DNA from: Acidimicrobiales bacterium
Lineage (GTDB): Bacteria; Actinomycetota; Acidimicrobiia; Acidimicrobiales; SZUA-35
Assembly (NCBI GenBank): GCA_965216655.1
Contig: CBDCGP010000058.1
Span: 9,593-73,592 of the forward strand
Direction: 5' to 3'
Length of the DNA stretch: 64,000 nt
The notes beneath the pieces were generated by a model that saw only the letters and a program-made list of their open reading frames with translations, did not search any database and was not told where the DNA came from. The position numbers and the translations under genes are program-made. Positions 1,418-51,058 of this stretch are shown piece after piece. How positions within the stretch are numbered: the stretch's first letter is position 1; each line of letters starts with the position of its first letter.

Positions 1418-1434
1418 CGACGGAGGTCCAACAA

Positions 1435-1483: not shown

Positions 1484-1501
1484 ACAAAATTGGGGGGATT
1501 G

Positions 1502-2017: not shown

Positions 2018-2038
2018 GACACTCCTCTTGCTCGTTCG

Positions 2039-13395: not shown

Positions 13396-13454
13396 GTCGT
13401 GTGTCCTTCCCTCCCGAGGTTGTGCAGCCCGGGAAGCCTTTGAGATTAACGTAG

Positions 13455-13481
13455 TGACAAAGTATCTTAGTGTCAAAGACA
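13455..13481. promoter_or_regulatory. Candidate MarR operator in the divergent isoG/gshA promoter region
   Basis: AT-rich intergenic with overlapping dyads TGACA-N11-TGTCA (13455-13475) and TCTT-N7-AAGA within TATCTTAGTGTCAAAGAC. Confidence 0.45.
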
Positions 13482-13508
13482 ATTTCCCAGGAAGGGTCGG
13501 CGAGATTC

Positions 13509-28013: not shown

Positions 28014-28355
28014 TTACCAGATGTTGAGCAGCGTCTTGACGATGTCGTGCACGTCGAGCGCCACCTGCTGGTCGACGACGCCGAGTCGATGGATGAGTCG
28101 ACGCCGGTTGACCGACCGGATGAGTTCGCATTGGGCGTAGCTGGTGTCGGTGAGCCCGTTGGTCTCGCTTGGCTCGACCTCGACGTGGATCGATAGCTCT
28201 CGATTCGTGGAGGTGAGTGGCACGACGATGGTGAACGGAAAGCCCGGCCCGAAGTCGGACGGCGGTCCGAGGATCAGTGCCGGGCGATGGTAGGCCGGAT
28301 CGCCGGGATAGGGATCGCCGAAGTCAACGAGCCACAGTTCGTCAGGTGAGCCCAT
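28014..28355 (-). CDS. mazF: PemK/MazF-family toxin
   Basis: ELWLVDFGDP..G..A..RPALI, VVPLTS, SYAQCE.IRSV..RL..RLG. Confidence 0.88.
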   Translation of the reverse strand: MGSPDELWLVDFGDPYPGDPAYHRPALILGPPSDFGPGFPFTIVVPLTSTNRELSIHVEVEPSETNGLTDTSYAQCELIRSVNRRRLIHRLGVVDQQVALDVHDIVKTLLNIW

Positions 28356-28578
28356 CGGCAACGGCGCTGTCGGCTTCGGCGACGTAGGCGGCCCACGCCT
28401 CCGGATCGTCGCGCAGCCGATCGATCTCGCCGGCCACTGTTCGAGCCAGCCGCTGCCGTCTCAGCGCCTCTGCCGCCGCCCCAACCGTGTCGGTCAAGGA
28501 ATCGCCGGTCGAGCGACTGAGCTCCAGCAACCGAGCGTGGGTCTCGACGTCGACTCGAATGGTCGTGGTCTTGCTCAT
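28342..28578 (-). CDS. Putative antitoxin
   Basis: TTTIRV...TH.RL..L, small acidic C-terminus; overlaps the toxin start. Confidence 0.75.
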   Translation of the reverse strand: MSKTTTIRVDVETHARLLELSRSTGDSLTDTVGAAAEALRRQRLARTVAGEIDRLRDDPEAWAAYVAEADSAVADGLT

Positions 28579-29559: not shown

Positions 29560-30246
29560 TTACGGGTAGACGTTGCCGACTTCGACGAGATGCCACCGGC
29601 CGTCGAGCTTGACCGCCTCGACGTTGACCGTCCATCCCGGTTGCGCGGCCTTGCTCGTCTTGGTCGACACGGTGAGCGGCGCGTCGAGCCCCTCGAACCA
29701 CAGGGCGCCGGGTTCGACCTTGGTGATGGTGAGGTAGTCGTCGACCCAGTGGTCGTCGGGGATGTCGGCGGCGTCGAAGGTGGGGAGGCGCTCGGCGTCG
29801 TCGTAGAGGAGGTCGGCGAGCTTGTCCAGGGCCGGAAGCTGCTTGGCCGCGGTACCGCCCTGGTCGGCCATCACGGCGGCCTGGGTTGGGTTGATGTGGC
29901 CGTTCTTGGCGAGCCAGGTGGCGAGCTTCCCGGTGACGGTGCCGGCCGACTTCAGCAGCTCCTTGCTCGCCATGACCTTGCGGATCATGAAGTAGTCGAG
30001 GAACTCGCCGACGTTCTCGGCGATCTTGTCGGGCCCGAACAGGCTCGTGAACGCGCCCTGCTCGTCGACCTCGAACCGCCCCTCCCACCGGGCGAACTCC
30101 TCGTCGGTCAGGGAGTTGGGTGCGTACCCGTTCATCGACATCGCCAGCAGCTCGATCACCTGCTCATACTGCTGATAGGTCCGCTCCGACAACCGAGCCC
30201 GCTGCTCATCCAGGAACCCGGCGAACACCTCATCGATCGTGGCCAT
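29560..30246 (-). CDS. Hypothetical protein
   Basis: 228-aa ORF with strong GC-rich codon bias; FL.YF..RKVM motif; C-terminal beta-rich part ending GNVYP. Confidence 0.75.
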   Translation of the reverse strand: MATIDEVFAGFLDEQRARLSERTYQQYEQVIELLAMSMNGYAPNSLTDEEFARWEGRFEVDEQGAFTSLFGPDKIAENVGEFLDYFMIRKVMASKELLKSAGTVTGKLATWLAKNGHINPTQAAVMADQGGTAAKQLPALDKLADLLYDDAERLPTFDAADIPDDHWVDDYLTITKVEPGALWFEGLDAPLTVSTKTSKAAQPGWTVNVEAVKLDGRWHLVEVGNVYP

Positions 30247-30288
30247 GGAGGTGAGCGTAGTTGCAGACCTATCGCAGCTTGCGCAGCG

Positions 30289-32010
30289 TCATGCCGGCAT
30301 CGATAGATAGCCTGCGTCACCAAACAAGACCCCGCGGCTGAGGAACCTGTTGAAGTACCGACAGCTCGGTTCCCCAAGGTGGAGGCAAGCGACGCAGGCT
30401 CCGCCTGCCGCCCTGCAACCGGGATCCATCGGGCATCGTTGCTCGCCTCGGGTGATGGTGCCGAGGAGGCGGTCGAGCTCGGTCTCGAAGAGGGCCTGGA
30501 GTCCCCCTAGCACGAAGTCACCACGCGATGATGCATAGACAAAGAAGCCGAGATGGAGTGGGACGAGAAGCTCTGAGAGCGAGTTTCGGTCCAAACCGGC
30601 GAATACCGAGGCCTGCCTGATGAATCGGTGCGCGTAGGCGTGTACGAGCGTCAGCAGATCGGTGCCGAGGGTCGTCGAGTCCGGCTCCTCACCGGGCATG
30701 GGCACGTCGGCTGCAGCCAAGATGGCCTGCCTCGCCTCTTTCGGATTCTGGGCCGGGTCGATCCGGCGTCCTCTGCGTCGGAGCCACTCGACCACTCGCA
30801 TCGGGTCCAGGCGGACGAACAGAGCCTCGGTCTCCAGCAGGTCAGCGTGCACCAGGTACTGGTTCGACCGTCGGTCTCGCCATAATCGCAACGTGGACTG
30901 GCCTGGGGTGCTGGCACCTCTCGTGTAGCCGAAGTTGCCGACGAGCACGGGGAACCGGTCGAGTAGGTCGACCTCCTGGAGGCCAGCTCGATGAAGGGCC
31001 AAGGTGTAGTCGATCCGATACCGGAGACCGAGCGCAGACCGCTCGTCCGTCGATGCGATCAACGACTCCACGTTCATTCGACCGTCGAGCATCGCTCCGG
31101 CGACAGCAGTCGCCTGGTCCAGCGCATCCGCCCGATTGGTCCCGAGATCGGCTGCCGGGTCCGCTGTTTCCACCTGCCCATCCTGTTCCGCGACCTCGGC
31201 CATCTTCTCGGCGGTCTCCCTCGGCAAACCCTTGGCGACCAGATCCTCGACCAAGGACGCCCGATCGATGATCAGATCCTTCATGTCGATCGAGGGCAAC
31301 CCATCTAGTACCCATGCGAGAGCACGATTCGGGCCCCCGCTGGCATGAAGCCGGGCGAGCTGATCATCCGAGAGCGGATTGACCATGGCGAAACTACGCG
31401 GCGTAAACACTGAAGCGGCACGGTGCACGGTCCAGCTGAGCCGCCCATCGTTGCACCCCCCGCAGGTCGTGAAGCCGAACCCCTTTCGCAGCTCGATGTT
31501 GCACACTGGGCACACGAACCTGATCTGGGATGCGTCGGCCGAGCCCGGGAAGATCACTCGGACATCGTCGTGAGCTCGGCAACGGGGTATCCAGGGCTCC
31601 TCAAGATGGCCGCAGTCGTGGTAGCCAACGAAGTGAAGCTGCCCGAATGCTCCCGGACCGCTGGCGCCGCATCGGCATGGTCCAGTGGCGCCACGCTTTC
31701 TGATACGGCTACAGGAACGGCACTGCCAGACGTCTGGAAAGCGCTCGACGGTCACGCCGTGGTCCTTGGCGACGGACACGACGCGGATCGGCTGCTCCTG
31801 TCGCAGTGCCCTCGCGAAGTGTGAATCCTTTCCCGTCGCCTCCCAGGGGCGGACGAGACGCAGCAGTTCTCGCCGTAGTGCGGCCTGGTTCACCTGAACG
31901 AACTCGGGCCCCATCCACTCGGCGACCTTCCATACGCCGCCGTTCAGGTCCGCGGTCTGCTGAGGGAGATAGCCGTGGAGTATCTGCGTTGTGCTCCGAC
32001 TCGCCTTCAT
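30289..32010 (-). CDS. DrmB-like protein with C-terminal DUF1998 Zn-binding domain
   Basis: Several CxxC motifs, HAYAH.FIR, and C..DP.C..ACVACL...E.SC..FN..L.R; ATGA overlap with the upstream helicase. Confidence 0.8.
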   Translation of the reverse strand: MKASRSTTQILHGYLPQQTADLNGGVWKVAEWMGPEFVQVNQAALRRELLRLVRPWEATGKDSHFARALRQEQPIRVVSVAKDHGVTVERFPDVWQCRSCSRIRKRGATGPCRCGASGPGAFGQLHFVGYHDCGHLEEPWIPRCRAHDDVRVIFPGSADASQIRFVCPVCNIELRKGFGFTTCGGCNDGRLSWTVHRAASVFTPRSFAMVNPLSDDQLARLHASGGPNRALAWVLDGLPSIDMKDLIIDRASLVEDLVAKGLPRETAEKMAEVAEQDGQVETADPAADLGTNRADALDQATAVAGAMLDGRMNVESLIASTDERSALGLRYRIDYTLALHRAGLQEVDLLDRFPVLVGNFGYTRGASTPGQSTLRLWRDRRSNQYLVHADLLETEALFVRLDPMRVVEWLRRRGRRIDPAQNPKEARQAILAAADVPMPGEEPDSTTLGTDLLTLVHAYAHRFIRQASVFAGLDRNSLSELLVPLHLGFFVYASSRGDFVLGGLQALFETELDRLLGTITRGEQRCPMDPGCRAAGGACVACLHLGEPSCRYFNRFLSRGVLFGDAGYLSMPA

Positions 32011-35000
32011 CGCCGTCCTTCCAACTTCTCTCGGATCGGTGCTGTCTCTTCCACATCGCGAAGAGAAAGCATTGGCCGGCGACCGCCTGGGCTCAGCTCA
32101 CTCGGGAAGATCGCTCCCTCCGGAGGCACCTCCAAGTTGAAGAGGAACTGCTCGATCCAATCCCTGATCTTGGCCCGGATGTTCGAGTCGAGTTCGTCTG
32201 TCACGCCGAGAAGCTCAGCAACCGCAGAAGCTTCCTCGTCGACATCGAAGGGGAACGCCTGGTCGTACTCCTTCAGCGCCTTGATCATCGTGAGGCCTCG
32301 GCGCCATCGATGCTCGTGGAGGTGAAGCAGGCGAGCCATCATGATCCCAGGCATGGTGTTGTCCAGCACCCTCACCGATCGTTTGGTCACCGGTACGGGT
32401 TCGACGAAGCGATCACCCTGCGAGACGAATTGCGGCCAGGAACGGTAGGTGCTGGCATCCCGCTCGCGCGCCATCTTGTGGAGAACGAACACGAATCCAG
32501 GCCAGGTCCTCCCGATCCGGGCGGTCGTCTGGATGTACTCGGCGGTCGTGAGGGGAAGGCCGAGCACCACCATGGTGTTGAGCCGATCGACGTCCACACC
32601 ATGGGACATCATCGACGAAGCGGTGATCACGTGGATCCGTTCGTCGTAGTCGGCCTGGGGATGCTGAAGCTGATCGAGTGTCTCCCTGACCTCTTCGAAG
32701 GGCGTCTGGCCGGTGAGCGATCGCCTGATGAGCGGACCGTCGACCGGCACCTGGGTTTCCAGCGACCTGCTGGCCGCCTCCAGATCTCGGATGGTGTTGC
32801 CATAGACGACGGCGGTGCCGAACAGGTCGAGGAGCCGATCAGCATGATCGAGATCGACTCCTGCCTCGGCGCAGACCACAGCAGGATCGTCCCGGAGACG
32901 CCGGAGCTGTTGCTGAAGGATCGTCACGATCCGGTCGTTGGCGAACTCCAGAGTTGCGCCGCGCGGCGCAAGTGCGATGTGGCGACGCGACAGCTCCTCC
33001 GACGGAGCGGTCCAGAAGCCCACGTCAGTCGACGGTCCTTGGACCGGGAAGACGCGAGCCTGACGCCGGTACAGTACATCGACCTGATGCTCGTAGCCCG
33101 ACAGCGTGGCGGAGGAGCCCAGGATCTTGGCAGAAGTCCCAGTCCGCTCAAGCTGGAGATGATCCAGGAGCGCCTCATAGTGGGCGTCGACAGCCCCGAG
33201 AGCGTCGCGCAGCAGATGGAGTTCGTCCTGAAGGCGAAAGGTCGGCGCATAGCGATGTTCGGGCATGGGAAGCGGATCGACACTGCGATCACAGCCCGGC
33301 ACGAGGCAACCCTGCGGCTTCTTCTTCCGGCGGGCGTAGGTGTGACCGTGACCCGGCTCACTGCAGATGCCAGCCGGCGGTCCGAACAGACCGGCCATTG
33401 CGGCCTGAATCGACAGCGACGCGATCTTGTCCAGCGTCCCGATGACGGCCGTCGGGAGAAACCGGTAGATCTCATCGTCGACGACATAGAACGGCAGCGG
33501 GCGATCGCCCCACGGGCAGTCGGTATTGGAGCAGCGATGATCGAGCCGCCAGAGCTCAGGATCGAAGTCCATCTCGATCTCGTCACCGAAGCAGAAGGGG
33601 CACTGAAGCAGGACCCGGTATCGACCTGGCATGTTCGGATCCTCGGTATCCGGCATCCAGTCTTCGGCCGGATCAGGGTCGAGACGGTTGGGAGTGGCTC
33701 CGGCCCCGATGAGAAACCCCAGCGAGATGGGCTCACCGGGGATCTCGGCCGACTGCCTCACCAACTCGGCACCAGCCATGGCGTCGGCAAATCGCTGAGT
33801 TTGCTGCAGCGACAACAACCGCAGGGGAAAGCGACTCCAGGCCGTGACACCGGTCGTCTTGCCCGTGGCCCTGTCGTAGAGAGCGGCCATGACGACCAAC
33901 CCGAGATAGGTCTCCGTCTTGCCACCTCCTGTTGCGAACCACACGACATCTGCGGTCATGGCTTCAGCTGTCGGGTCTGCAACTGCAGGACAGCAAGCGA
34001 TCACGAAGGCGAGCTGGAACGGTCGCCAACCTGGATAGCGGCCCCGCGAGGAGTGGACCATCGCCTGATTCATCAGGCAAAACGCCCGGAGCAGATTCTC
34101 ATTCGCCTGCAGAGCGGCAACACCAGCCGCGAGCCTCTCGGCCTCCTGTTCGTAGTCGCGACGGCCGCTGAGTGCAGCCTCCCGGACTTCGTCGGTCCAG
34201 CCTTGGATACGCGCCCGCTCGCCCAATGCCTCGTCCGACCAATGGACATCACCCCACGCCCTGTGAGCTCGTGCGAGCTCGTGGAGTGCGGGTAATGGGT
34301 CGTCGGCCAGGCTCGCAAACGACAGCTCGGGACATGCCGATTCGGCGTTCCAGAAGGTCGGCCGGTACTGGCGGGTCTCGATCGCGTCGACCGTTCGAAG
34401 CCTGCCATCATCGAGCGCCTCGATCCCGGCGTTGATCCCGTAGCACATGACCCTGCGGTCGTAGCGGTAGGAGTCGGGAAGCGATTCGAGAAGGTATGGA
34501 GTGATCGCCGGCGGCGTGACCGACAGTTCGACCTCGAACAAGTTCGACGAGACCCCTCGGATGCGCGCAGGCGAGGTATTCACGACCGTGAGCTCGACCG
34601 AGGGACCATCCAAGGTCTCGACGACCTCGGCTCGGACGACGGCTGAGAGGTCAGGGCATCCCGACGTTCGCTCCAGCTCCGTGGCGAGTCGTCCACCGAA
34701 ATGGTCGGTGACGCCATCCCGGATCTCGAGCAGACCGCCGACCTCACAGTACGGCGACTTCCTCCACATCGAGCCGTCGGAGGTCCACGTGGCGCACCTG
34801 ACCACGACGTCGAAGGTCCAGGGCGCAGGACCTACCGGTTGCACCCGAATGCCGACGGCCGAAGGATCGAGTCGCTCACCGCGCTCACCGATCCCCCGAG
34901 TCAACTGCCCCTCTTCCGGCGCGAGCGTGCCCAGCCAGAAGCGGCTGCTGGGGTCCAGCTCAGCCTCGACGACGTCCCTCCCACGTGCCTCCTGGATGAC

Positions 35001-35051
35001 CTTGTCAGACAACCACGCGCCGAATGTCTCCGCCGCCTGGCGTTCACTCAT
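32007..35051 (-). CDS. DrmA-like superfamily 2 helicase
   Basis: WRPFQLAF, Walker A FATGGGKTE.Y, LRLL.LQQ.QR, QDELHL, SAT, S.MSHGVDV.RL, EYIQ..ARIGR; ATG 35051 overlaps the sigma gene stop. Confidence 0.85.
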   Translation of the reverse strand: MSERQAAETFGAWLSDKVIQEARGRDVVEAELDPSSRFWLGTLAPEEGQLTRGIGERGERLDPSAVGIRVQPVGPAPWTFDVVVRCATWTSDGSMWRKSPYCEVGGLLEIRDGVTDHFGGRLATELERTSGCPDLSAVVRAEVVETLDGPSVELTVVNTSPARIRGVSSNLFEVELSVTPPAITPYLLESLPDSYRYDRRVMCYGINAGIEALDDGRLRTVDAIETRQYRPTFWNAESACPELSFASLADDPLPALHELARAHRAWGDVHWSDEALGERARIQGWTDEVREAALSGRRDYEQEAERLAAGVAALQANENLLRAFCLMNQAMVHSSRGRYPGWRPFQLAFVIACCPAVADPTAEAMTADVVWFATGGGKTETYLGLVVMAALYDRATGKTTGVTAWSRFPLRLLSLQQTQRFADAMAGAELVRQSAEIPGEPISLGFLIGAGATPNRLDPDPAEDWMPDTEDPNMPGRYRVLLQCPFCFGDEIEMDFDPELWRLDHRCSNTDCPWGDRPLPFYVVDDEIYRFLPTAVIGTLDKIASLSIQAAMAGLFGPPAGICSEPGHGHTYARRKKKPQGCLVPGCDRSVDPLPMPEHRYAPTFRLQDELHLLRDALGAVDAHYEALLDHLQLERTGTSAKILGSSATLSGYEHQVDVLYRRQARVFPVQGPSTDVGFWTAPSEELSRRHIALAPRGATLEFANDRIVTILQQQLRRLRDDPAVVCAEAGVDLDHADRLLDLFGTAVVYGNTIRDLEAASRSLETQVPVDGPLIRRSLTGQTPFEEVRETLDQLQHPQADYDERIHVITASSMMSHGVDVDRLNTMVVLGLPLTTAEYIQTTARIGRTWPGFVFVLHKMARERDASTYRSWPQFVSQGDRFVEPVPVTKRSVRVLDNTMPGIMMARLLHLHEHRWRRGLTMIKALKEYDQAFPFDVDEEASAVAELLGVTDELDSNIRAKIRDWIEQFLFNLEVPPEGAIFPSELSPGGRRPMLSLRDVEETAPIREKLEGRR

Positions 35052-36591
35052 CACGATTCTGTTCCTCCTGGAGTAGGCGAGCGATCGAGACCTCGGCATC
35101 AGCGAACGCTGGGCCATCGGGCTGCGCTGGAAGCAAGTCCCCGGCGTTCATAGCGATGATCAGTTCGAGGACGTGGTCGGCGAGCTCCGCTCGATGGTCT
35201 CCGATCAGGCCTGTCCGATGTTCCTCGAAACCGGCAAGGAGACGGTCCGCAGTCATGACACCGATGGCGCGATTCGAATAGATCTGCTCGAGTGGACGCA
35301 GCGAGTCACTACCAATCGGCCGATGTTCGCGCGTCTCCGCCGCGTCGACGACAGCTCCCTGTTGCACGAATTCCCCATCTGGTTCGCTTTCTGGTTGACG
35401 TGCGAGTTTGGCCGGGACCGACGGTAGGCTATCGGGGGACCCGAGAATCCGTCGCAGCTCTGCGAGCGTCTTGGACTCGATCTGACGGATGCGTTCGCGG
35501 GTGACGCCGAACTCTTGGCCGATCTCCTCGAGCGTATGCTTCCGACGGTCTCCAAGGCCGAAGCGTAGGCGGATGACCTCTGCCGACCGGTCATCGAGCT
35601 CGGCGATCGCCCGCTGGAGCCATGCGGCCTCGCTCTTCCCTGCGGCAATCTCCTCAGGAGACGGGAACTGACTGACCAGCGTCTGCTCCAGCGAGAAGCC
35701 CCTTTCAGCGCTGAGTGGGGCGTCGAGACTCGACCCAACACGTGCCCAATCCTCCATCGCCTGGATTTTTCCCGCATCGATTCCGGTCGCTTCAGCCAGT
35801 TCGGCGAGGCTCGGATCTCGACCGATCGTCGCTCTCGAGCGACGCTTCGCTGCCTCGACTCGACGACGCTCGTCACGAGCGTGCACCGGCCAGCGGATCG
35901 TCTGATCCAGATTGTCGACCGCCCGCTGGAGCGATTGCTTGACCCACCAGGTCGCGTACGTGGAGAACTTGTAGCCCTTCGTGGGGTCGAACTTCTCCAC
36001 AGCTCGGTAGAGGCCGAACATGCCTTCCTGGATGAGATCGAGGAGATCGAGTTTCTGGCTGAGACGGTGAGCGAAGCGGGCCTGCCAGATCACGAGACGG
36101 ATGTTGCCCAGTAGGAACTGCTCGAAGGCCTTCTGGCCTTCCTCGATGATGGCCTGCTGCCCTGGGCTGGGCTCACTCTCGCCGAGCTGCATCCGAAGCT
36201 CTGCCATCGCCGCGATCCGTCGCGACAGCTTCCGTTCTGCCTCTGCGGTCAGGAGCCGGTACCGCTCAAGGTCGTTCAGGAACAGGCCCATGAGATCGAG
36301 CACCTGTTTGTCACCGAGGTCGTCCGGTGCCCATCCATCGAGTGTTGGCGCGTCGTCGACGAGGAGGCCCTCTCCGATGAGATGGGATCGGACCTCGGCG
36401 GTCTGCGCCGCATCGAGGTCCCTTCGTTGGCAGATGGAGAGCACTTTGTCGTAGTCGAGCGACTGCGTCCTACTGTGTTCGGCGCGCAGCCGCTTGACGG
36501 CCTCGACTACCGGATCTTTGGCCACGGCCCCCACCTCCGGCCCGGATGACGTTTCGCCGGATCGTACCCACGAATCAGTATTAGTTTGCAT
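35044..36591 (-). CDS. RpoD/SigA-like sigma-70 factor with C-terminal extension
   Basis: Region 1.2 LLTAEAE..L, region 2 DLIQEG.FGL.RAVEKFD.TKGYKFSTYATWW, region 3 SLDAP, region 4 TLEEIG..FGVTRERIRQIE. Confidence 0.88.
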   Translation of the reverse strand: MQTNTDSWVRSGETSSGPEVGAVAKDPVVEAVKRLRAEHSRTQSLDYDKVLSICQRRDLDAAQTAEVRSHLIGEGLLVDDAPTLDGWAPDDLGDKQVLDLMGLFLNDLERYRLLTAEAERKLSRRIAAMAELRMQLGESEPSPGQQAIIEEGQKAFEQFLLGNIRLVIWQARFAHRLSQKLDLLDLIQEGMFGLYRAVEKFDPTKGYKFSTYATWWVKQSLQRAVDNLDQTIRWPVHARDERRRVEAAKRRSRATIGRDPSLAELAEATGIDAGKIQAMEDWARVGSSLDAPLSAERGFSLEQTLVSQFPSPEEIAAGKSEAAWLQRAIAELDDRSAEVIRLRFGLGDRRKHTLEEIGQEFGVTRERIRQIESKTLAELRRILGSPDSLPSVPAKLARQPESEPDGEFVQQGAVVDAAETREHRPIGSDSLRPLEQIYSNRAIGVMTADRLLAGFEEHRTGLIGDHRAELADHVLELIIAMNAGDLLPAQPDGPAFADAEVSIARLLQEEQNRDE

Positions 36592-36718
36592 TTCGAGCCG
36601 GCAGGCGGGAGGCGGAAATCGACGTTCTCTAGCATCAGGAGATCAATCGGCCCATTCCGAGTTCGCCGGCGTCCATTCAGGAATAACCGCTGTCGACTCT
36701 CTCGATCCTACAACTGAA

Positions 36719-37837
36719 CTATTGTGATGAATGGATACGCTCACGGGGTTCCAGACGCCGGCGGAGACGGCCGAGTGTCTTTGACTCGATCTGACTGATC
36801 CGACTCTCGGTCAATTCGATTTCGTCAGCGATTTCGTTCTGAGTCCAAGGTCGGCCGTCCTCGATGCCATACCTCAAGCGGATAATCCTGGCCGTGCGAG
36901 TATCGAGTGTCGAGATGGCCTGATGTAGCCGCGCCGCCTCATCTGCGTCGATCACTAGCTCCTCCGGCGTCTTTGCGGAGCAGGTGACGGTGTGACCCAA
37001 CGATACCTCTACGGTTGAGGAGGTCGGGCCGTCCAAGCTCGAAGTGACATGCGCCCAATCGCTCATCGCAACAATTCGCGCCGGCGAAACGCCTGTGGCA
37101 TCGGACAGCTCGGAGAGATGCGGATCAGTGCCGGTGTCAGCAATGAGCTTATCCCTAGCCTTCTGCACCAGTACGTGGCTTCTCACTGCGCTTCGCGGCC
37201 ACCGGATTGTTCGATTGCGTTCCACGAAGGCCTCTTCGATCGAACTCATGATCAACCACGACCCATACGTCGCAAACCTGAATCCCGCAGTTGCATCGAA
37301 TCTTTCGACGGCTCGAAGCAGTCCGAAAACGCCTTCCTGGAAGAGGTCCGATTCTTCCAGAGTGCGACCACGCCGGCGAGCACGGCGGGCTTGCCGTGCG
37401 ACCAGGCGGACATTCGCCAATACGAGCTCCTCGTATGCTTCGCCCCCCTCGTCGAGAAGCGACTGCTCGGCGGGCGTAGCTTCGGCGTCCCGAAGCCGGT
37501 CTCGCAGCTCGGTCATTGCCCGTACGCGACGGGACAGCGATCGCTCCTCGTCGCTGGTCAACATCGAGCAGCGCGTGAGGTCCTTCGGGAACAGCGGTGC
37601 CCGACGGTCGAGCGGCCGCCGACGAGGTCGAATGGACTTTCCCAGTAGCCTCGCGTTCAAGTCAGCTTCGCGCAGCAGACCCTCCGCTCTGAGCCGGGTC
37701 CGGACCTCGGCAATCTGGGTGCCGCTGAGTTCTCGCCTCTGACAGATAGACAACACTCTGTCGTTGTCGAGAGTCTGTGTTCGAGCCAGCTCAGCCCGCA
37801 GGCGCTCGACGGCTTCTGCTACAGCATCCCGATTCAT
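36719..37837 (-). CDS. Second, divergent sigma-70 family factor
   Basis: ATG 37837. ANVRLV, DLFQEG.FGL.RAVERFD..GFRFATY, SSLD, IIRLRYG, EIA..LTESRISQIESK. Confidence 0.82.
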   Translation of the reverse strand: MNRDAVAEAVERLRAELARTQTLDNDRVLSICQRRELSGTQIAEVRTRLRAEGLLREADLNARLLGKSIRPRRRPLDRRAPLFPKDLTRCSMLTSDEERSLSRRVRAMTELRDRLRDAEATPAEQSLLDEGGEAYEELVLANVRLVARQARRARRRGRTLEESDLFQEGVFGLLRAVERFDATAGFRFATYGSWLIMSSIEEAFVERNRTIRWPRSAVRSHVLVQKARDKLIADTGTDPHLSELSDATGVSPARIVAMSDWAHVTSSLDGPTSSTVEVSLGHTVTCSAKTPEELVIDADEAARLHQAISTLDTRTARIIRLRYGIEDGRPWTQNEIADEIELTESRISQIESKTLGRLRRRLEPRERIHSSQ

Positions 37838-38500
37838 CAGCTGATTCTCCGATGTCGACTCGTTGCCTTGGTCGACCCGCCGGCGATCGGGGTCGACGGC
37901 CAAGGCAGTGCAACCTCTCGGATGATCGGCATGCCAACACTGAAACTGATGCACTTTCGATAGAGGGGCCAGCTGGACTGCCCAATCTGACTCGCCACCC
38001 AACCGGTCCGCGGCAAGGCCTCTAGCTATGGCGTGTTGGACCAAATCACCAACTACGTGGCTAAGATTCGCTACGAGTCGCGGCACGGTTCAGTAGCCGG
38101 TGCTGTATACCTGGTCGTCGGCTCGGTAGGGCCGAGACCATGGCCACGGACAAGGTGCCGCGCCTACGCCGGCATAACTCCGGCATCGGCGCTGACTCAC
38201 CAACGGTTCGCAATTCCGTCGCCTGGTGCTACCGACTTGCCGTTGTCCAGCCCGTCGACCACATCAGATCCGGTCATGAGGCACTCAATTTCGATGATTA
38301 CGGCGTCAGGTCGATGGACACCACTGCGTCGGGCGCCTGCTCGACGGCACAATCCATCAGCACATGCCCGATCGCTTCGACAGAAGATCGCCGCTGAGCG
38401 TCATGACGCCGGTGACCGTGTCCGCCGAAGTAATCACCGAACCCTACCGGCACTGTCGATCGACCTTTGTTGCCTCGAACCGACGCTGGTCACGAGTGTC

Positions 38501-39688
38501 TTACGCGAGTTCCCAATGGCCCAGGTGCGCATCGAGTGCATCTCTGAAGCCTTCATATCGGCCGAGGTTCGTTTCCCGGAGCCTCGACAGAAAGCCTCCT
38601 GTCGCACGAGCAGAAAGCGGGTCAGTGTCAGGCACGGATAGGAGGTCCCGCAAATGAAGATACGGCTCCACCCGCGGATACTCCGAAGCAAACACCTCGG
38701 ACGCCGTATCGGTCGAGCCCATTGCCGCCTTTGGCCATGACCCCGACCGATGCCACGGACGGTAATCGACCACCGGATCCGCCGGATCAGAGATACGCTC
38801 GCCAAGCCACTCCGCCACACCGACCGTTACAGCGTTGCCCACGAGCTTCCACCTAGATCCAGGCTGGCTGGCGAGCACCTCGGTAGCGGTGTGTCCCCGC
38901 TTGAATCCCTGGAGTGCCTCGGCGTCTTCGATCGTCGGCTTGACGAATTGGCGACCAGCGGACTCGTGACGTAACCAGACGGCGGGCGGCGACGGGATAC
39001 CGAGACCTGATCCACCTTTCAATGTCGGAATCGCATCCTGCGCCCAACCCAGTCCTCGTCGTCCCTCGGTCCAGTAGAAACCAAAGGCGTCATCTCGGTA
39101 TCGGTCGGCCGGCGGCTCCCCTTGGTCGTCGGCGAACAACACCATAGATGGGTCCAACTCAGTCGATGCATAGAGGAACACCCGGCGGCGCCTCTGTGGC
39201 ACGCCGGTGAATCGACTGTCGACCGTGCGATACGCCCACCGATAGCCGAGAGCTTCGCATCGAGCGATCAATACCTGCATCGCCCGACCTTTCCCCAGCA
39301 CGAGCATGTTCGCCACGTTCTCGAGAAGCAGATCTGGCAGCGGGCGTCTGTCCTGGCGGATCTCTTCCAGAAGATCGAAGACGTGGAGGATCAGTCGAGA
39401 GTTGGCTCCGTGGATGCCGTCGGTGCGCCCGACTTGGGACAGATCTGTGCATGGAAATCCTGCCGTGATCAGATCGACCTCATCAGGAATGTCCGCCGGT
39501 GTGAGCGTCGCCACGTCGGGATGAACAGGAACACGACGGAAGCGGTCGCTCGATCGGAGCACCTCGACGGCAGGCTTCCAGCTCTCGCAGAGCATCGAGG
39601 TCGTGTGGCCTGATCGGCTCAAGCCGAGTTCGAAGCCTCCGATACCAGCAAAAATGCCTGCTATTCGTCGTCCCCCGGCGGCCTGCAT
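38501..39688 (-). CDS. dcm: C5 DNA cytosine methyltransferase
   Basis: Motif I FAGIGG, motif IV GFPC, motif VI ENV, motif VIII PQRRRR, motifs IX/X LQGF and GNAV. Confidence 0.92.
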   Translation of the reverse strand: MQAAGGRRIAGIFAGIGGFELGLSRSGHTTSMLCESWKPAVEVLRSSDRFRRVPVHPDVATLTPADIPDEVDLITAGFPCTDLSQVGRTDGIHGANSRLILHVFDLLEEIRQDRRPLPDLLLENVANMLVLGKGRAMQVLIARCEALGYRWAYRTVDSRFTGVPQRRRRVFLYASTELDPSMVLFADDQGEPPADRYRDDAFGFYWTEGRRGLGWAQDAIPTLKGGSGLGIPSPPAVWLRHESAGRQFVKPTIEDAEALQGFKRGHTATEVLASQPGSRWKLVGNAVTVGVAEWLGERISDPADPVVDYRPWHRSGSWPKAAMGSTDTASEVFASEYPRVEPYLHLRDLLSVPDTDPLSARATGGFLSRLRETNLGRYEGFRDALDAHLGHWELA

Positions 39689-39739
39689 GCCCGCTACTGT
39701 AGAACGGGTTGCTATGCGCCGAGGGGGACGGGGCGAAGA

Positions 39740-40213
39740 ATGCGGCGATACAGCGACGAATCCTCGATGACAACGGAGCTCACGACCACCCTAGGAACAT
39801 CGCGGCGACTGAGCAAGCAGCAGCGTCGGGATACGACGCCGGAGCTGGCCATCCGGCGCTCCCTTCATGCCCGTGGTTTTCGATATTTCGTCGACCGACG
39901 GCCCGTGCCCGAACTCCGCACAAGGGCTGATCTCGTGTTCGTGTCAGATCGAGTCGCGGTCTTCGTCGACGGTTGCTTCTGGCACGGATGCCCTGATCAC
40001 GCAACCAGTCCCCGCAACAACGCCGACTGGTGGCGGGCCAAGCTCGACGCGAACAAGCAACGAGATCGTCGCAGCACCGAGGCGCTCGAGGCTGCCGGAT
40101 GGGCGATCGTTCGTATCTGGGAGCACGAAGATCCGGCGGAGGCCGCGGACCGCATAGCTGACACGATCTACAGTCGCCGCAGGGATCGGCGCGAGGAGGG
40201 ACCAGCGACATGA
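39740..40213 (+). CDS. vsr: Very short patch repair endonuclease
   Basis: RDT.PELA.R..LHARG.RY, AD.VF, AVFVDGCFWHGCP.H, N..RD, GW..VRIWEHE. Confidence 0.92.
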   Translation: MRRYSDESSMTTELTTTLGTSRRLSKQQRRDTTPELAIRRSLHARGFRYFVDRRPVPELRTRADLVFVSDRVAVFVDGCFWHGCPDHATSPRNNADWWRAKLDANKQRDRRSTEALEAAGWAIVRIWEHEDPAEAADRIADTIYSRRRDRREEGPAT

Positions 40214-43200
40214 ACCGAACGACGCCCGAACAGGGCCAACTCGTTCACGTCCGCAACCGTGATTGGTCCGTTCTCGACGTTCGACCGTCGACACTCCCGG
40301 CCCCTGAGGGTGCGCCGGCGGACTGGAAGCCACAGAACGTAGTCCATCTGACGTCGATCGAGGACGATGGTTTCGGCGAGGAACTGGAGGTGGTCTGGGA
40401 GATCGAACCCGGCGCCCGCATCGAGGATTCGTCGGCCAGCCTGCCCGATCCCAGGAACGGCTTCGACGATCCGACGACCTTCGAGGCCTATCTCCACGCG
40501 GTGCAATGGGGCGCAATCAGCCAGTTCGACCTCGACGCCCAGACCGGTGATGCCGGCCGACTTCAAGCCCCATTCCGCAGCGGCATCCACGTCCAGGACT
40601 ACCAGCTCGATCCTCTGGTTCGGGCACTACAGATGCCCCGAGTCAATCTGCTGATCGCCGACGACGTCGGACTCGGCAAGACGATCGAATCCGGACTCGT
40701 GGCGCAAGAACTCGTACTCCGTCACCGAGCCCGTCGAATCCTGATCTTGTGCCCGGCCGGTCTCCAGGTCCAGTGGCGTGAACAGATGCGAGACAAGTTC
40801 GGACTCGACTTCAGGATCCTCGACTCGGCGCTCATGCGAGACCTTCGACGGCAACGAGGGATTCACGTCAACCCATGGGGGCACCACCCCCGCCTCATCG
40901 TTTCGATGGACTACGTCAAGCGAACGCGGCCGATGCACCTGTTCCGCCAGGCGACTCGACGCTCCGACGGCCGCATTCTGCCCCGTTGGGGTGACCTGCT
41001 GATTCTCGACGAAGCGCACAACGTCGCTCCGTCCGGAACCGCAAACTACGTGAAGGCCAGTGATCGTACGAAAGCGATCCGGGAGATCGTGCAGCACTTC
41101 GAACACAAGCTGTTCCTCACCGCTACTCCCCACAACGGCTACCAGGACAGCTTCACGGCCTTGCTCGAGATGCTCGACGACCAACGTTTCGCTCGTGGCG
41201 TGATGCCGGAGCCCGACCAGCTCCACCAGATCATGATCCGCCGCTTGAAGTCGGAGTTGAAGAAGAACTGGGATGGGTCGAGCCGCTTCCCGGAGCGGAA
41301 CATCCAACCAATCGAGGTCGAGTACTCCGACGCCGAGATCGAGCTGCACGCTCTTCTGCAGCGCTACAGCGACGCCCATTCGAAGAGCGACGAGACCACT
41401 GAGGGCGTCGCCAGTGGATTCGTTCTGAAGACGCTGAAGAAGCGTCTGTTCTCGAGCCCCCAGGCCTTCGCCAGCACACTCCAGAAACATCACGACCGCG
41501 TCATGGGTTTGCTGGATGATGACGACGGCGACCGCGCAGCCGAGCGGCCAGCGCCACTGAAACGGTTCCTCCAGCAGGCCGAAGACGAGGTGGCAGCCGA
41601 CGACGAAGAAGCCGAGCAGACACTCGCTGACACCGTCGAAGTCGCCACCAAGCAGATGACCCTCGACGACGAGAAGGTCGATCTTCTGCAGACGCTCCGC
41701 AAGAAAGCCGATGCAGCCGCTAACCGACCCGGCGCAAAGGTCACGGCACTCATCGATTGGCTCGATGCCAATATCCGGCCCGACGGCGAGTGGTCCGACG
41801 ACCGGGTCATCATCTTCACCGAGTACCGAGCCACGCAGAACTATCTCCATCAGCATCTTGCCAACCACGGCTTCACCGAGGACGGCCGGCTCCGACTGAT
41901 GTTTGGCGGGATGGACCTCGACGACCGGGAGAGGATCAAGAAGGCGTTTCAGGCTCATCCGTCCGAGGAGGGCGCCGAGGTACGGATCCTGTTGGGCGAC
42001 CGACACCGCCAGCGAAGGCATCGACCTGCAGAACCACTGTTCGAATCTCATCCACATCGAGATTCCCTGGAACCCGAACGTGATGGAACAGCGAAACGGT
42101 CGCATCGACCGCTACGGGCAACAGCGGAGCCACGTCGACATCTTCCACTTCGTCCCTGCCGGCTACGATCACGATGCACCAGATCCGGATGCCGATCCTG
42201 GTGATCTGGCCGGCGACCTCGAGTTCTTGTATCGGGCCGTGAGGAAGGTCGATCAGATCCGCGAGGATCTCGGGAAGGTCGGACCGATCATCGCCGATCA
42301 GGTCGAAGAGGCACTGGTGGGAGGCAATCGGGCCCGTCTCGACACTCGTCACGCCGAAGAGGGAGAGCGTCTCGACCGGGAGTTCCTCAAACGAGAACGC
42401 GAGTGGGACACCTATATCGCCGACTTGCGGTCTCGGCTGCAGGCGACCCAGCGGGAACTCGATCTGAGCCCCGAAGCAGTTGCGGATGTCGTGCACGTCG
42501 GGTTGGCGCTGGCCAAACAACCGGCTCTGGAAATAGTCGAGGTCGAGGGTCTCGAATCTGGTACGGCCTGGCGGGTACCTCACCTACGAGGTTTCTGGCA
42601 GCGGCTGTTAGAAGGTCTGGAGGAGCCGCACTCCGGGCGTATCAGGCCGATCGTGTTCGACCAACGTGTGGTCGACAAACGATCAGATGTCGTGCTCGCG
42701 CATCTCAACCATCCGCTCGTACAGCGCTGCCTTCGTCTCCTCCGAGCCAACGCATGGTCTTCTGCATCCACCGATCTGCGACGGGTGGCCGTGCAGGTGG
42801 TCGATGATGCGACCTTGGAGGCGCCGGCGGTCATCGGATTCGGCGGCTCGTGGTGCTCGGTGGTGATGCCCAGCGCATTCACGAGGAGATCGTCTCGGCC
42901 GCGGAACGATCACCGAGGGTCGCTTCCGTCGTTTCGACACGCGGGGCGAACTCGACCGTGTCGTGCAGTCCATGATCGACGGCCGCGTCGACGATTCGGT
43001 CACCGACACCCTGGCCGGCCTCTGGGACAAGCTCGCACCTGGAGTGGATGCAGCACTGGAAGCTCGTGAGCGCGAGCGTACAGAAACACTCGAGAACCGT
43101 CTGGCCACAAGGAGAGAGCGAGAGATCGCCGACGTGAATTCGGTGATGAACGAGCTGCAGCGCCGAATCGAAGAAGAGCTGGCGGAGCCCGAGGGTCAGC

Positions 43201-43402: not shown

Positions 43403-46400
43403 GTGTCGGTCGCAGCACACCATGTCGAGTGGTTGTCGGTGATGGACGTGTCTGGCCCGTTTCTGTCGGTTCCCGTATTGAAGGAAGTGTTACCGAACGG
43501 CTGGACGAGCACGATCCCCACATCGCAGCCGAGTTGCGGGCAGCCCTCGAGCAATGGGACGATGGCCTCCCCGAGTTCGGATGGGCCGACACCTCGGAGT
43601 CCATCTGGCATTCGTCCGGTTCGTGTTGGTCGAAGTACTGGGATTTCAGCCAGATGTGTTGCAGTGGGACGATACGACCCTGGCCGCTCACACCTATGAG
43701 GTTCCAGGCGTGGGAACAGTTTCCCCTGACGCAGTCGTGATCGATGGTGATGAGCCACTGATGCTTGTCGCGATTCATGCTCGAGATCAACTGGTGGATG
43801 CACCCTGAAGGTTGGGAACAGTCTCGCCGCACGAACGGATGGCGTCACTGCTGAGAGCGTCGGGAGTGCGGGTTGGGGTGGTAACCAACGGCGACGGCTG
43901 GACTCTTGTGTCTCAGCAATACGGAAACGGTCCGGGTTTTGCCACTTGGTGGGCATCGTTGTGGGCTGAGGAGAATCACTCTCCAATCGTTCCGCACCTT
44001 GCTAGGTCAAGACCGATTTCTGACAATGGGCGAGGACGAAACTGTTACTGCGCTACTCGATCGATCGGCGGAGGATCAGCGTGAGGTCACTACCAAGCTC
44101 GGTAGCCAAACACTGGAAGCAGTAGAGATCCTCATCCGCACGATCGACGGAATTGACCAGGAAGGCGGTGGCGAGCTGCTTCGGGAGGTCGAGAACCAGC
44201 ACGGTATTGCTGAGCTCTACGACGCTGCCGTCACGGTGATGATGCGGCTGATCTTCTTGTTCTACGCCGAGGAGAACGAGCTACTGCCGATGTCCGAGCC
44301 ATTGTATGTCGAACGATACGCGGCATCATCACTTCGCGAACGTCTGCAGGCGGTCGCCGATCTACACGGGGAAGAGCTGTTGGAGTGCACCTACGACGGC
44401 TGGGCAAGGTTATTGTCGACGTGGCGTGCTGTGTACGGCGGGGTCGAACACTGCGACATGCGGCTGACCGCCTACGGCGGCAGCCTGTTCGACCCAGACC
44501 GCTACCCGTTCCTCGAAGGCCGCCAACCCGGCTCGTCGTGGGCTGACAGCAACGCAGATCCGTTGAAGATCGACAATCGAACGGTCCTCCACCTACTGAA
44601 CGCCTTGCAGACCCTCGACGAAAGCGGCCAGCGTCGGAAACTTTCGTTCCGAGGCACTCGATGTGGAACAGATCGGCCACGTCTACGAAGGCATGCTCGA
44701 CCACACTGCGAGTCGAGCGAACGGTTGGGTTCTCGGACTATCCGGAACTGGCGGCCGAGAGCCTGAGATCGAACTCGACGATCTCGAACGGCTCGACGAC
44801 GACGCCTTGCTATCGCTCTTGAAAGACAAGACAGGGCGAGGAACGGCGACGACCGAAAAGTGGATGACTGGGGACCAGCCGGACAAGGCCGTCGCCAGGT
44901 TCGGAGCAACGTGGCCTTCGGCATTTGACGGCACGACAACGGAGTTGCGTGTAAAGCGGTTCGCAAAGCTCATTCGACCCGACTCCACCGGTGGGCCAAC
45001 TGTGTTCCAACCAGGCAGCGTCTATGTCGCAGACTCCTCTCATCGCGGAGCAACTGGAACCCATTACACCCCACGTTCTCTCACCGAAGAGATCATCAAA
45101 CACACACTCGACCCACTCGTTTACGACGGACCGTCCGAAGGCAAACCCGAATCCGACTGGACACTGCGAACGCCTGAAGAAATCCTCGACCTGAAGATCT
45201 GCGACCCTGCCTGTGGATCCGGCGCCTTCTTGGTCCAAGCCTGCCGGTACCTCGCCGATCATCTCACCGAAGCTCAACGAACCCACGGACAACGCACCGG
45301 ACCGATCACCGACTACGAGATAACCCAAGCCAGACGACTCATCGCCGAAAACTGTCTACACGGCGTCGACATCAACCCCATGGCCACCGAAATGGCCAAA
45401 CTCAGCCTCTGGCTCATCACACTCGCCCACGATCAGCCCTTCTCATTCTTGGATGATCGGATAGTGTGCGGAGACAGCCTCACGGGGCTGACGAGCCTCG
45501 ATCAACTAGCCGGTCTCTCGCTGTCCGGAACAAACCCTGCAGTCGCGTCGCTCTGGGTCTCGAGGGCGGAGTCCCGAGGTCGAGGAAGCCGTGCGCCTGT
45601 TTGCTGAACTCCGGGCAATCCGAAGTGACTCTCCTGCCGATGCTCAGATGAAGAGCAGCCGGCACGATGCGTTGGCCGAGAGAGTGGTGCCTCTGATGCG
45701 GGCAGCCGACACGCTGTGTCGATTGACGGCCGCTGGGCTGTCTAGCGGCCGCCTCGATCAGGACGCTCTGGCCGCATCTGTGGTGGGAGCGTTCGACGAC
45801 GCAACATCTCCAGCAGAAGGGTCTCGGGTTCATTGGCCACTGGCATTTGCGGACATCTTCGCCCGAGAGAACCCGGGCTTCGACGCCGTGATCGGGAATC
45901 CGCCATTTTCTCTCCCAGGCGTCGGCGGCGACAGCGACCAGCCCCACTGAGATCGAATTCCGCAAGCTGAATCTCGGCGGAGGAATCACCGCAACCAGCG
46001 ATACGGCATCTCATTTCCAAGCACTGGCCCTCACCCTGCTACGCACAGGTGGCCTGTCCGGACTGGTTCAGCCTGATTCCCTGCTTTCGGCCAAAGGCAG
46101 TGAAGCACTCCGACGAGTGGTGACCGACGAGCACGTTCTCGCTCATCTCTGGGTTGCAGGCGAGAAGGTTTTCGAGGCTTCGGTGATGGTTTGCGCTCCT
46201 ATCGTGCAGAAGCTGTCGGTCCATGGTCAGCCACTACGCCGTTGGATGGGTCGGAATTGGAGGCCAGTCCCACCTTTGAACCATTCGCAGGTTCGGCGGT
46301 CAACTGGGAACTGGGCTCCATTGATAGCCGAAGCCTTTGGGATTCCTTTAATCAAATCGACGTCCGCCAAGGCGATTGGCGACTACTGCAGCACGACAGC

Positions 46401-50000: not shown

Positions 50001-51058
50001 CTCGAATCGGGCCTGACCTTCGGGCCGTCGGCCAAGTCACTGGCAGAGCGCAGCGGTTGGCGTTTCGACAAGGCCGACAGTCAAAGGGGTCGCAACCGTT
50101 GGGAACTGGATTCATCCTCGATCCCATCGAAGCCGACCAGATCCTCCAGAGCGCTCCAAACGAGAGCGAGGTGATCAGACCGTTCCTCAACGCACAGGAT
50201 CTCAACTCCCGACCCGGCAGCACGCCGAGTCGTTACATCATTAACTTCGGCGAACTATCCGAGGAGGAGTCTCGCCGTTACGAGAATGCGTTTCGTATCG
50301 TGGAGGAGCGAGTCAAGCCTGAACGGCTTGCCGCTGGCAACGACGGTTGGCGTGCTCGAGTATTCGACCGATGGTGGCAGTTCGAGGCACCAAGGACCGA
50401 GATCTACCACTGGGCCAAGGAACTTGGCGGACTCACTGCTATTGCCGGTGTTAGTAATACTGTCATGCCCCAGCGCGTGGCGCAGAACGTAGTTCTGTCG
50501 CAGGCGCTCTTCGTATTCCGAACCACAAAACTGCGTGACCTCGCGCTACTCTCAAGCGCTCCGCACTATTGGTGGACCGAGAAGCAGTGTTCGTCCATGC
50601 GAACAGACATTCGATACACGCCGACTGAGATCTTCGAGACACTTCCTTCAATAGATCTCTCGGATTCGGCAGGCGAGCAGATGCAGGTCATCCTCGACAC
50701 TCGAGCTGAGATCGGAGAGCGTGTCGGGCTCGGTCTGACGGCGATCTACAAACGCGTCGCAGACCCTTCGGATGGCGATCCTTTGATTCAGATCCTTAGG
50801 GACGCACATGCTGCGATCGACGAAACTTGCATTCGATCACTAGGCATCACCACGGACCTACGCCACGATCACTACGAACATGAGTACGGGAGGCGGTTCA
50901 CCCCCCATCCTGAGGTGCGGTTGCAGGTGCTGGACCGCCTGCTCGAGCTGAACTTCGAGACATTCGAGGCCGAACTAGAGCAGGGTCTTCATGACGGAGC
51001 AAGGGCGCGCTGGGTTGAAAGCGACGGAGTCAGAGAGCTCGTGGTGGAAGGCTCGTGA
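47079..51058 (+). CDS. drmMI: DrmMI-like adenine methyltransferase, copy 2, frameshifted near 47330 and 48124
   Basis: Same motifs as copy 1; DPACGSGAFL and GNPPF are followed by a long specificity-type region (TNTI.EGD-like, WWQF, RYTP..FET, L.RLL.LN). Confidence 0.82.

Follow-up and report, generated by a model that had tools for sequence, protein, structure and literature searches.

A sigma-70 factor in the DrmE position of an apparently new class of DISARM-like modules

Why should genes for RNA polymerase sigma factors stand directly in front of the helicase pair of a defence system? The question is raised by a locus of an Acidimicrobiales bacterium (assembly GCA_965216655.1, contig CBDCGP010000058.1), which we analysed within a stretch of 64,000 nucleotides, referred to here as the window. 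At this locus two sigma-70 genes, Sig1 and Sig2, lie between a gene for a C5 cytosine DNA methyltransferase (Dcm) and genes for a DrmA-like helicase and its DrmB-like partner, proteins of the type found in DISARM. An initial annotation of the DNA had described this group as a possible undescribed defence system. Our analysis indicates that sigma, helicase and DrmB-like protein very probably belong to a conserved functional module. From the kinship and company of its genes, the module probably serves in defence.

The association of sigma and helicase genes recurs far beyond the window. Relatives were taken from a genome collection with one genome per species by an alignment-based scan (the best 80 of 129 relatives) and from a second, independent collection of metagenome contigs (80 of 217 relatives), and the adjacency of sigma genes was scored by tblastn with the window proteins. 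A sigma gene was found beside the helicase pair in 78/80 genome loci and 75/80 metagenome loci. In 71 of the genome loci the sigma gene immediately precedes the helicase in the same orientation (70 as scored, and L054, where it overlaps the helicase start), and in seven it is downstream on the opposite strand; in the metagenome loci it is upstream in 72 and downstream on the other strand in three. The two genome loci without a visible sigma gene are a 4.4-kb contig (L047) and a locus that ends about 1 kb past the DrmB-like gene (L065), and the five metagenome loci without one all have less than 1 kb of DNA upstream of the helicase, so that all seven misses are contig-end loci. In the 70 upstream loci, the distance from the sigma stop to the inferred helicase start is 0-30 nt in 46, 31-100 nt in nine and more in one, and in the other 14 the two overlap. 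The DrmB-like gene follows the helicase in 79/80 genome loci, and the exception is cut by a contig end. In the seven loci with a downstream sigma gene, the sigma heads a convergent operon, usually with a NERD-UvrD helicase gene.

The 80 genome loci come from Actinomycetota (35), Pseudomonadota (30), Planctomycetota (7), Acidobacteriota (6) and Myxococcota (2). Because the island in the window is crowded with other systems, it could be argued that sigma genes adjoin the DISARM-like pair by chance. The adjacency in two collections and five phyla rules this out together with the controls, seven class-2-type DISARM plasmid loci whose annotation has a sigma-70 gene within 6-7 kb in 0/7, and the probability that we leave to chance is practically nil. 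The conservation in other genomes on which the initial proposal depended was thus found in both collections.

In the same seven control loci the large gene before the helicase is annotated as DrmE in three, matches the DrmE model of PADLOC with 282 bits in one and weakly in another, and is unnamed in two. Class 2 DISARM consists of DrmMII, DrmE, DrmA, DrmB and DrmC, a gene list that also appears in the annotations of the control loci. The sigma gene therefore stands where class-2-type loci have DrmE, as had been suggested from the window alone, and the helicase clade groups with class 2 DrmA. A cryptic relationship between the two proteins was considered and rejected, since hhalign of the sigma against DrmE of Haloferax volcanii gave a probability of 0.3%, and no DrmE model in PADLOC matches any of the five window proteins. 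Judged by gene order and profile comparison, the sigma replaces class 2 DrmE without being homologous to it. As a separate observation, one class 2 DISARM locus on plasmid pHTIA of Halorhabdus tiamatea (L209) has a gene of the 'transcription initiation factor IIB family' after Dcm on the same strand, at 13303-14229. Such a TFIIB-family gene, the archaeal counterpart of a sigma, was seen near haloarchaeal class 2 DISARM in one of the five loci read and may be a coincidence.

The identity of the helicase pair is supported by both sequence and predicted fold. The helicase sequence has DrmA (7s9v, E 6.6e-54) and the partner sequence has DrmB (E 0.0034) as its only match in the PDB. The AlphaFold2 model of the helicase (pLDDT 73.7) has DrmA as its sole strong Foldseek match (E 6.5e-41, TMq 0.69), and the model of the partner (pLDDT 83.5) has DrmB (7s9v_B, E 2.2e-12) as its only significant fold match in the PDB. 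The partner has no Pfam match. The Walker A motif (GGGKT), DELH and QxxARxGR are invariant across the helicase family. Invariant Cys/His clusters are present in the helicase (C485/C488/C508/C513 and C564/C583/C588) and in the partner (C97/C100/C112/C114 and C144/H147/C167/C170), which suggests that the DUF1998 cluster is accompanied by several further zinc-binding modules. Identity to the window helicase is 50-64% among the best 120 database proteins; nearly all of them have about 1000-1055 residues, and they are named at most 'helicase-related'. One protein of 1600 residues (P0026) is a fusion of the helicase and the DrmB-like protein.

Like DISARM, the window arm encodes a DrmA-type helicase and a DrmB-type DUF1998 protein in adjacent, separate genes. 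The curated cut-offs of NCBIfam are widely missed (DrmAS 368.5 against 950; DrmAL 240.6 against 999; DrmB_fam 55.7 against 240), which places the pair in a separate clade of the DISARM branch, outside the defined classes. In an unrooted tree made by a quick method and containing long class 2 branches, 23 sigma-linked helicases fall together in a single long-stemmed clade (100% support), and this clade joins three class 2 DrmA proteins, again at 100% support, apart from class 1 DrmA. A match to a system that already has a name was a possible outcome for this arm; its proteins score below all curated cut-offs for DrmA, DrmB and MzaA.

The sigma itself resembles the principal sigma factors. Among 19 family members, Pfam finds regions 2 and 4 in all 19, region 3 in 16 and region 1.2 in 10. 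The family consensus keeps FSTYATWWIRQ, DLxQEGxxGLxRAVEKFDP, PVH and TRERIRQIE, motifs that we take to make contacts with DNA and with core polymerase. Signatures of principal sigmas are likewise retained in its regions 2.1-2.4, 3.0 and 4.2, and an N-terminal segment shows the spacing of region 1.1. Sig2 and the family have the regions 1.2, 2, 3 and 4 and the motifs for reading -10 and -35 elements that characterize group 1/2 sigmas; Sig1 lacks the motifs. The best PDB match of Sig2 is SigB of Mycobacterium tuberculosis (7pp4, E 8e-52), followed by SigA. The system sigma falls below all sigma cut-offs of NCBIfam except that of the generic superfamily model. In a tree of 80 system sigmas and 25 host sigmas of six genomes, the system sigmas cluster together. 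A prediction of the complex of helicase residues 1-345, DrmB-like residues 1-212 and sigma residues 1-385 gave a score of 0.00 with no controls folded, and it is counted neither way.

In the window the five genes run head to tail on the minus strand in the order Dcm, Sig1, Sig2, helicase and DrmB-like (Table 1), and the initial annotation had their orientation and positions right. The helicase ATG at 35051, preceded by AGGAGGA, overlaps the stop TGA of Sig2 at 35046-35044. This overlap had been noted earlier and was assigned to the first sigma gene; Sig2 is in fact the second in transcription order. The helicase and DrmB-like genes share ATGA at 32010-32007, an overlap that is present in the sequence as described. 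The two overlaps had further been taken to suggest one translationally coupled unit, which holds for Sig2, helicase and DrmB-like gene. The stop of Dcm is at least 414 nt from the start of Sig1 (about 660 nt if Sig1 begins at the ATG at 37837), and Sig1 and Sig2 are 127 nt apart. Tight coupling is limited to Sig2 and the helicase pair, and Dcm is uncoupled from the sigmas. A scan of 29900-40300 for promoters and terminators found one promoter-like site against 1.5 expected and gave nothing usable. Dcm is divergent from a Vsr gene 51 nt away, a conserved member that was left out of the original five-gene list. At 40210 the stop of Vsr and the start codon of the class I DrmD gene share ATGA, which indicates that Vsr is transcriptionally tied to the neighbouring class I arm, although it is a conserved partner of the sigma-linked module.

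Table 1. Genes of the sigma-linked module in the window, with the adjoining Vsr gene.
Feature	Coordinates	Strand	Matches
C5 cytosine DNA methyltransferase, Dcm type	38501-39688	-	PF00145 121.6 bits, TIGR00675, PADLOC MTase_II 382 bits
Distal sigma-70 paralogue Sig1	36719-38086	-	Pfam regions 2, 3, 4
Proximal sigma-70 factor Sig2, principal-sigma-like	35044-36591	-	Pfam regions 1.2, 2, 3, 4
DrmA-like superfamily 2 (SF2) helicase	32007-35051	-	PADLOC DrmA 331-338 bits; Pfam Helicase_C
DrmB-like OB/Zn-ribbon-CON-DUF1998 helicase partner	30289-32010	-	PADLOC DrmB 94 bits
Vsr-type mismatch endonuclease, divergent from Dcm	39740-40213	+	TIGR00632 112 bits (cut-off 97.85)

Sig1 is 46% identical to Sig2 and is its sister in the tree, on a longer branch. 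Its counterparts of ATWW, PVH and RERIRQ are replaced, so that residues of regions 2.3/2.4, 3.0 and 4.2 are lost while regions 2.1/2.2 are kept; by these replacements Sig1 is a lineage-specific paralogue without DNA-reading residues. The alignment to Sig2 and a low G+C content at third codon positions (GC3) in the first 60 or so codons indicate that the true start of Sig1 is probably the internal ATG at 37837. The initial annotation counted two sigmas in the system. This is correct for the window and does not hold as a rule, as one sigma is typical and a second was found in one other locus, L129, the closest relative among the metagenome loci, whose helicase is 63% identical. There, two tandem overlapping sigma genes occupy 1318-3818, and the distal one lacks the motifs of regions 3.0 and 4.2. 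The two pairs were considered as ancient orthologues and this found no support, since the window copies are each other's sisters. Failure of the copies to pair as orthologues suggests independent duplication or gene conversion. The C-terminal tail of the sigma had been singled out for co-folding with the helicase; in Sig2 it comprises residues 386-515 (130 residues). It is confined to this window, having no Pfam match, no Atlas match, no copy elsewhere in the genome and no counterpart in other loci, and the idea of a helicase-binding element was dropped.

All open reading frames (ORFs) of the 80 genome loci were clustered and representatives were scanned against Pfam. A C5 methylase family was found in 66/80 loci, Vsr in 54/80 by clustering and 56/80 by tblastn, and a NERD-UvrD helicase in 27/80. 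An SNF2 helicase and a PglX/Eco57I-like methylase each occur in 16/80, the methylase mainly in Micromonosporaceae and relatives. Dcm and Vsr vary in side and strand around the invariant trio of sigma, helicase and DrmB-like genes. The window Dcm has the motifs FAGIGG, PC, ENV, QRRRR and GNAV and matches the DrmMII model of PADLOC with 58 bits, against 382 bits for the generic methylase model. Counterparts of 45-47% identity stand beside the trio in 7/80 loci, and the median pairwise identity of 0.26 within the Dcm family is usual for methylases of differing specificity. Aligned to Vsr of Escherichia coli (1CW0), the window Vsr keeps the catalytic Asp, CFWH and RDRR. By these motifs both enzymes are intact, and together they have the make-up of a very-short-patch repair pair, a C5 methylase linked to a Vsr with its catalytic residues. 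A paper on Caulobacter Dcm and Vsr (PMC12907096), judged by its accessible part, concerns an unrelated matter.

The sigma domain also occurs outside the module as part of longer proteins, many of which are fusions to defence-type parts, including NERD with TPR. Sigma-70 is fused to a NERD and UvrD-like helicase in P0179, to a PbeA-like helicase (PADLOC) in P0186, to a helicase-nuclease resembling Mko/Hhe/PDC-S37 in P0138 and to an MzaB-like GHKL ATPase in P0158. The NERD-UvrD gene that shares an operon with the sigma in some loci has a homologue in the UvrD-like part of P0179. The helicases fused to sigma-70 in P0146, P0152, P0181, P0186 and P0188 are SF2 helicases of the XPB/ERCC3 type. Another, populous group of proteins with about 1335-1380 residues, from Chloroflexota and others (P0125, P0126, P0131, P0136, P0142, P0167 and more), carries a principal-type sigma at the C terminus, and the N-terminal 1000 or so residues have no Pfam match. 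The possibility that P0125 is a fusion of the sigma with a helicase of the present family was discarded (hhalign probability 0.1%).

How these parts might work together can be sketched as follows. Dcm would mark host DNA, and Vsr would repair the T:G mismatches that arise from 5-methylcytosine, offsetting the mutagenic cost of the mark. The DrmA-like and DrmB-like proteins would act together as a single ATP-driven translocase on DNA, which inspects unmethylated DNA on its entry or blocks it, as in DISARM. The principal-type (group 1/2-like) sigma-70 would be an obligatory third core part in the slot of DrmE. By binding the core of RNA polymerase and -10/-35 DNA, it could bring the helicase pair to promoter open complexes on newly entered DNA, where the melted strand would provide a loading site for the helicase. 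For DrmAB, loading on single-stranded DNA and autoinhibition through a trigger loop have been reported. We tentatively put forward the reading that the sigma is a working subunit, whose action goes through RNA polymerase or promoters, and not only a regulator. This reading derives from the near-universal presence of the sigma, its tight coupling to the helicase, its place in the DrmE slot and the sigma fusions to defence-type parts. In its fullest form, transcription initiation would be a checkpoint, at which the sigma makes RNA polymerase open incoming promoters and the motor tests the methylation of the melted strand; in this form we consider it distinctly unlikely. If it were true, the sigma fusions would represent a broader, unrecognised 'sigma-guided' defence class, with Mza and the present DISARM class as two of its branches. 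RapA is an ATPase that binds RNA polymerase, and class 1 DISARM carries a RapA-like SNF2 protein. It is a speculative extension that both DISARM classes may touch polymerase, one through the RapA-like protein and the other through the sigma.

Several observations weigh against a working role of the sigma. It is always the first gene of its operon, whether with the helicase pair or with NERD-UvrD, which would suit a plain transcription factor too, and it is uncoupled from the helicase gene in 10/153 sigma-bearing loci. Constraining the system sigmas to one clade gave a likelihood above that of the free search (p-AU 0.83, approximately unbiased test), and the pairwise identities of the helicase correlate with those of the sigma (Spearman 0.55), the DrmB-like protein (0.68) and Dcm (0.34), but host relatedness confounds both the clade test and the correlations. 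Divergence is faster in the sigma than in the helicase, with a median pairwise identity of 0.32 against 0.51. Vsr is the sole conserved nuclease and mostly adjoins Dcm, as in ordinary repair pairs, and the fused sigma proteins lie outside the present helicase family.

Leading position and occasional uncoupling would both be expected if the sigma were a dedicated transcription factor only, which joins the core polymerase of the host as a holoenzyme, drives or maintains the defence operon, for example when a phage shuts off the host sigma, and has no physical role in surveillance of DNA. The sigma has the full principal-sigma architecture, and its promoter-reading and core-binding motifs are conserved. 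There is also a precedent in CBASS, where sigma-70-family genes accompany the CapH/CapP regulators in 24 systems, according to the accessible part of the report (bioRxiv 10.1101/2022.04.27.489752). The near-universal presence of the sigma exceeds that of the usual optional regulators, however, and its slot is that of DrmE, a core gene of class 2. Its promoter-reading residues match those of housekeeping sigmas and so provide no special choice of promoter, and sigma domains are covalently fused to defence-type helicases, nucleases and ATPases. For these reasons we regard a purely transcriptional role as somewhat unlikely.

The rapid divergence of the sigma relative to the helicase is what an arms race would produce, and it has been proposed that the sigma is a decoy or guard. 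In that case it would mimic the principal sigma of the host, and its capture by phage anti-sigma or sigma-appropriating proteins would release or activate the helicase pair. Regions 2 and 4 are a close mimic of principal sigma, and the window and L129 each have an extra, DNA-blind sigma that keeps region 2.1/2.2. Conservation of the DNA-contact residues, which a decoy would not need, speaks against this, and the presence of an own methylase in 66/80 loci points to discrimination of self and non-self by DNA methylation rather than to sensing of phage proteins. We consider a decoy improbable, and continue to favour, tentatively, a working subunit.

The surroundings of the module bear on its function. 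GC3 is 0.65-0.76 across 30289 to about 62444 (32 kb) and 0.8-0.94 in the flanks, and an ISL3 transposase gene stands at the edge of this stretch at 62722-63999. These features suggest that the defence island was acquired horizontally. No tRNA gene was found in the 64-kb window. Among 24 genomes of the same genus, none has a close homologue of the helicase and one holds a distant DrmA-type match of 34% identity. Relatives of the module were found on plasmids, and its cultured carriers include Roseomonas sp. OT10 (plasmid pOT10-1), Thiobaca trueperi DSM 13587, Pseudoalteromonas sp. S16_S37 and a Micromonospora strain. In one plasmid copy, of Burkholderia aenigmatica (L125, 7968-16743), an IS3 insertion breaks the module: the helicase annotation is in pieces and the DUF1998 gene is cut short. 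Downstream, the genes for the NERD-helicase and the sigma are intact.

These data are relevant to the possibility that the module serves DNA repair. It would then be an enlarged very-short-patch system or a transcription-coupled one, with nicking by Vsr, unwinding by the helicase and a link to transcription through the sigma. Dcm and Vsr are conserved together and usually adjacent, and the wider YprA/MrfA helicase family includes repair enzymes, as far as the accessible parts of two sources go (PMC7797055; bioRxiv 10.1101/2025.09.15.676423). A patchy and mobile distribution, with no close homologue in the genus and relatives on plasmids, does not fit a repair function, nor do the foreign composition, the transposase at the edge and the defence genes in the neighbourhood. 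The helicase, moreover, falls in the DISARM branch and not in the repair branch. Repair as the main function is therefore, in our judgement, quite improbable, and a defence function of the module is preferred.

On the plus strand the island contains a class I DISARM system with DrmD, DrmMI, DrmA (1120 bits), DrmB and DrmC and, as extras, a UvrD/GajB-like helicase, a GmrSD gene and an HNH gene. Its DrmD is found in two overlapping frames, 40210-42204 (model positions 10-583) and 41903-43069 (584-852 of 1040), which indicates a frameshift with loss of the C-terminal part, or an assembly error. Two DrmMI fragments at 43906-44766 (model 199-421) and 44663-45607 (model 426-733) are rearranged partial copies, the long DrmMI ORF at 48083-51058 covers model positions 350-1325, and about 2.5 kb of unannotated DNA lies between the pieces. 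The UvrD/GajB-like helicase, which has a weak ParE/RelE-like match at its N terminus, and the GmrSD-family gene occupy 51055-55003 between DrmMI and the class I DrmA. This RelE-GajB-like fusion resembles an accessory gene of ARMADA type II, as described in the accessible text of Bell et al. (bioRxiv 10.1101/2025.09.15.676423). Just outside the island are a MazF/PemK-like toxin gene (28014-28361) and a small upstream ORF (to 28605).

A whole clade of DISARM-type helicases has exchanged DrmE for a protein of textbook biochemistry. Sigma-70 factors bind core polymerase, recognise the -35 and -10 elements and melt DNA. Relatives number at least 129 among species representatives and 217 among metagenome contigs, so that the module gives a concrete, testable entry to the targeting or control of the helicase pair. 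It would also be a second and much larger case, beside MzaA, of sigma modules in immunity, and together with the fused forms it suggests a general link of transcription-initiation factors to helicase-nuclease defence.

Comparison with known systems places the module closest to class 2 DISARM, with which it shares a C5 methylase, a DrmA-type helicase and a separate DrmB-type partner. The best PADLOC models for the window pair, PDLC02576 and PDLC02582, also match the class 2 proteins of Haloferax volcanii pHV1, with 1049 and 440 bits; the window pair scores 331 and 94 bits. The window helicase is about 250 residues shorter, a sigma-70 takes the place of DrmE, and instead of the phospholipase D (PLD) protein DrmC, Vsr is conserved. 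The absence of a PLD gene from this arm had been recognised at the outset. The only DrmC-like gene in the window (60583-61404) belongs to the class I arm, and DrmC of the window matches 1/80 related loci (L011), within that locus's own class I system.

Class 1 DISARM has the DrmA/DrmB pair as well, its solved DrmAB structure (7s9v) is the top fold match for both models, and the SNF2 helicase and PglX-like methylase beside the trio in 16/80 loci recall its gene content. The window helicase, in contrast, is 32% identical to the class 1 DrmA of the window over residues 341-964, a fully supported branch lies between them, and the module has a C5 and not an N6 methylase and no PLD gene. MzaABCDE shares a sigma-70 module of regions 2-4 in a defence-annotated system, and the MzaA models are the only PADLOC match of both sigmas. 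The match is confined, however, to model positions 428-657 of 683, the sigma part of MzaA, a protein of about 700 residues at full length with the sigma at its C terminus. NF041931 scores of 217.8 and 140.7 stand against a cut-off of 800, and the partners here are DrmA-like and DrmB-like. MzaB to MzaE had no matches among the 15 window proteins scanned in PADLOC.

ARMADA, as far as the accessible text describes it, combines a YprA-family helicase with a Vsr-type nuclease and sometimes with a BrxHII-like helicase and a PglX-like methylase; unlike the window module, it has helicase, OB-CON-DUF1998 array and Vsr in one polypeptide and belongs to a clade nearer Druantia (bioRxiv 10.1101/2025.09.15.676423). 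In the window module, helicase, DUF1998 protein and Vsr are three genes, the helicase is of the DISARM branch, and a sigma is added. According to the same paper, 'many uncharacterized DISARM-like ... classes' fall within the DISARM-like clade; sigma factors are not mentioned in the main text, and the supplements may list the present clade. Outside subscription journals, which our search did not cover, no published link of a sigma factor to DrmA/DrmB-type genes was found.

The group 1/2 sigmas SigB and SigA of M. tuberculosis share with the system sigmas regions 1.2, 2, 3 and 4 and the motifs for contacts with DNA and core polymerase. The system sigmas differ in that they can form a clade of their own and travel with the helicase across phyla. 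As in CBASS with CapH/CapP, a sigma-70-family gene is encoded with a defence operon; in the accessible account of CBASS it is an occasional addition to a repressor/protease pair, whereas here it is a near-universal core gene. PADLOC 2.0 has no model for this sigma except MzaA, and none of the three core proteins has a name in NCBIfam release 20. Annotation pipelines label these genes only 'sigma-70 family', 'helicase-related' and 'hypothetical', as in the RefSeq entries for a complete plasmid copy ('sigma-70 family RNA polymerase sigma factor', 'helicase-related protein' and 'hypothetical protein'). Taken together, these comparisons indicate that the module is a new, apparently unnamed, sigma-containing class of DISARM-like systems with class 2 as its nearest relative.

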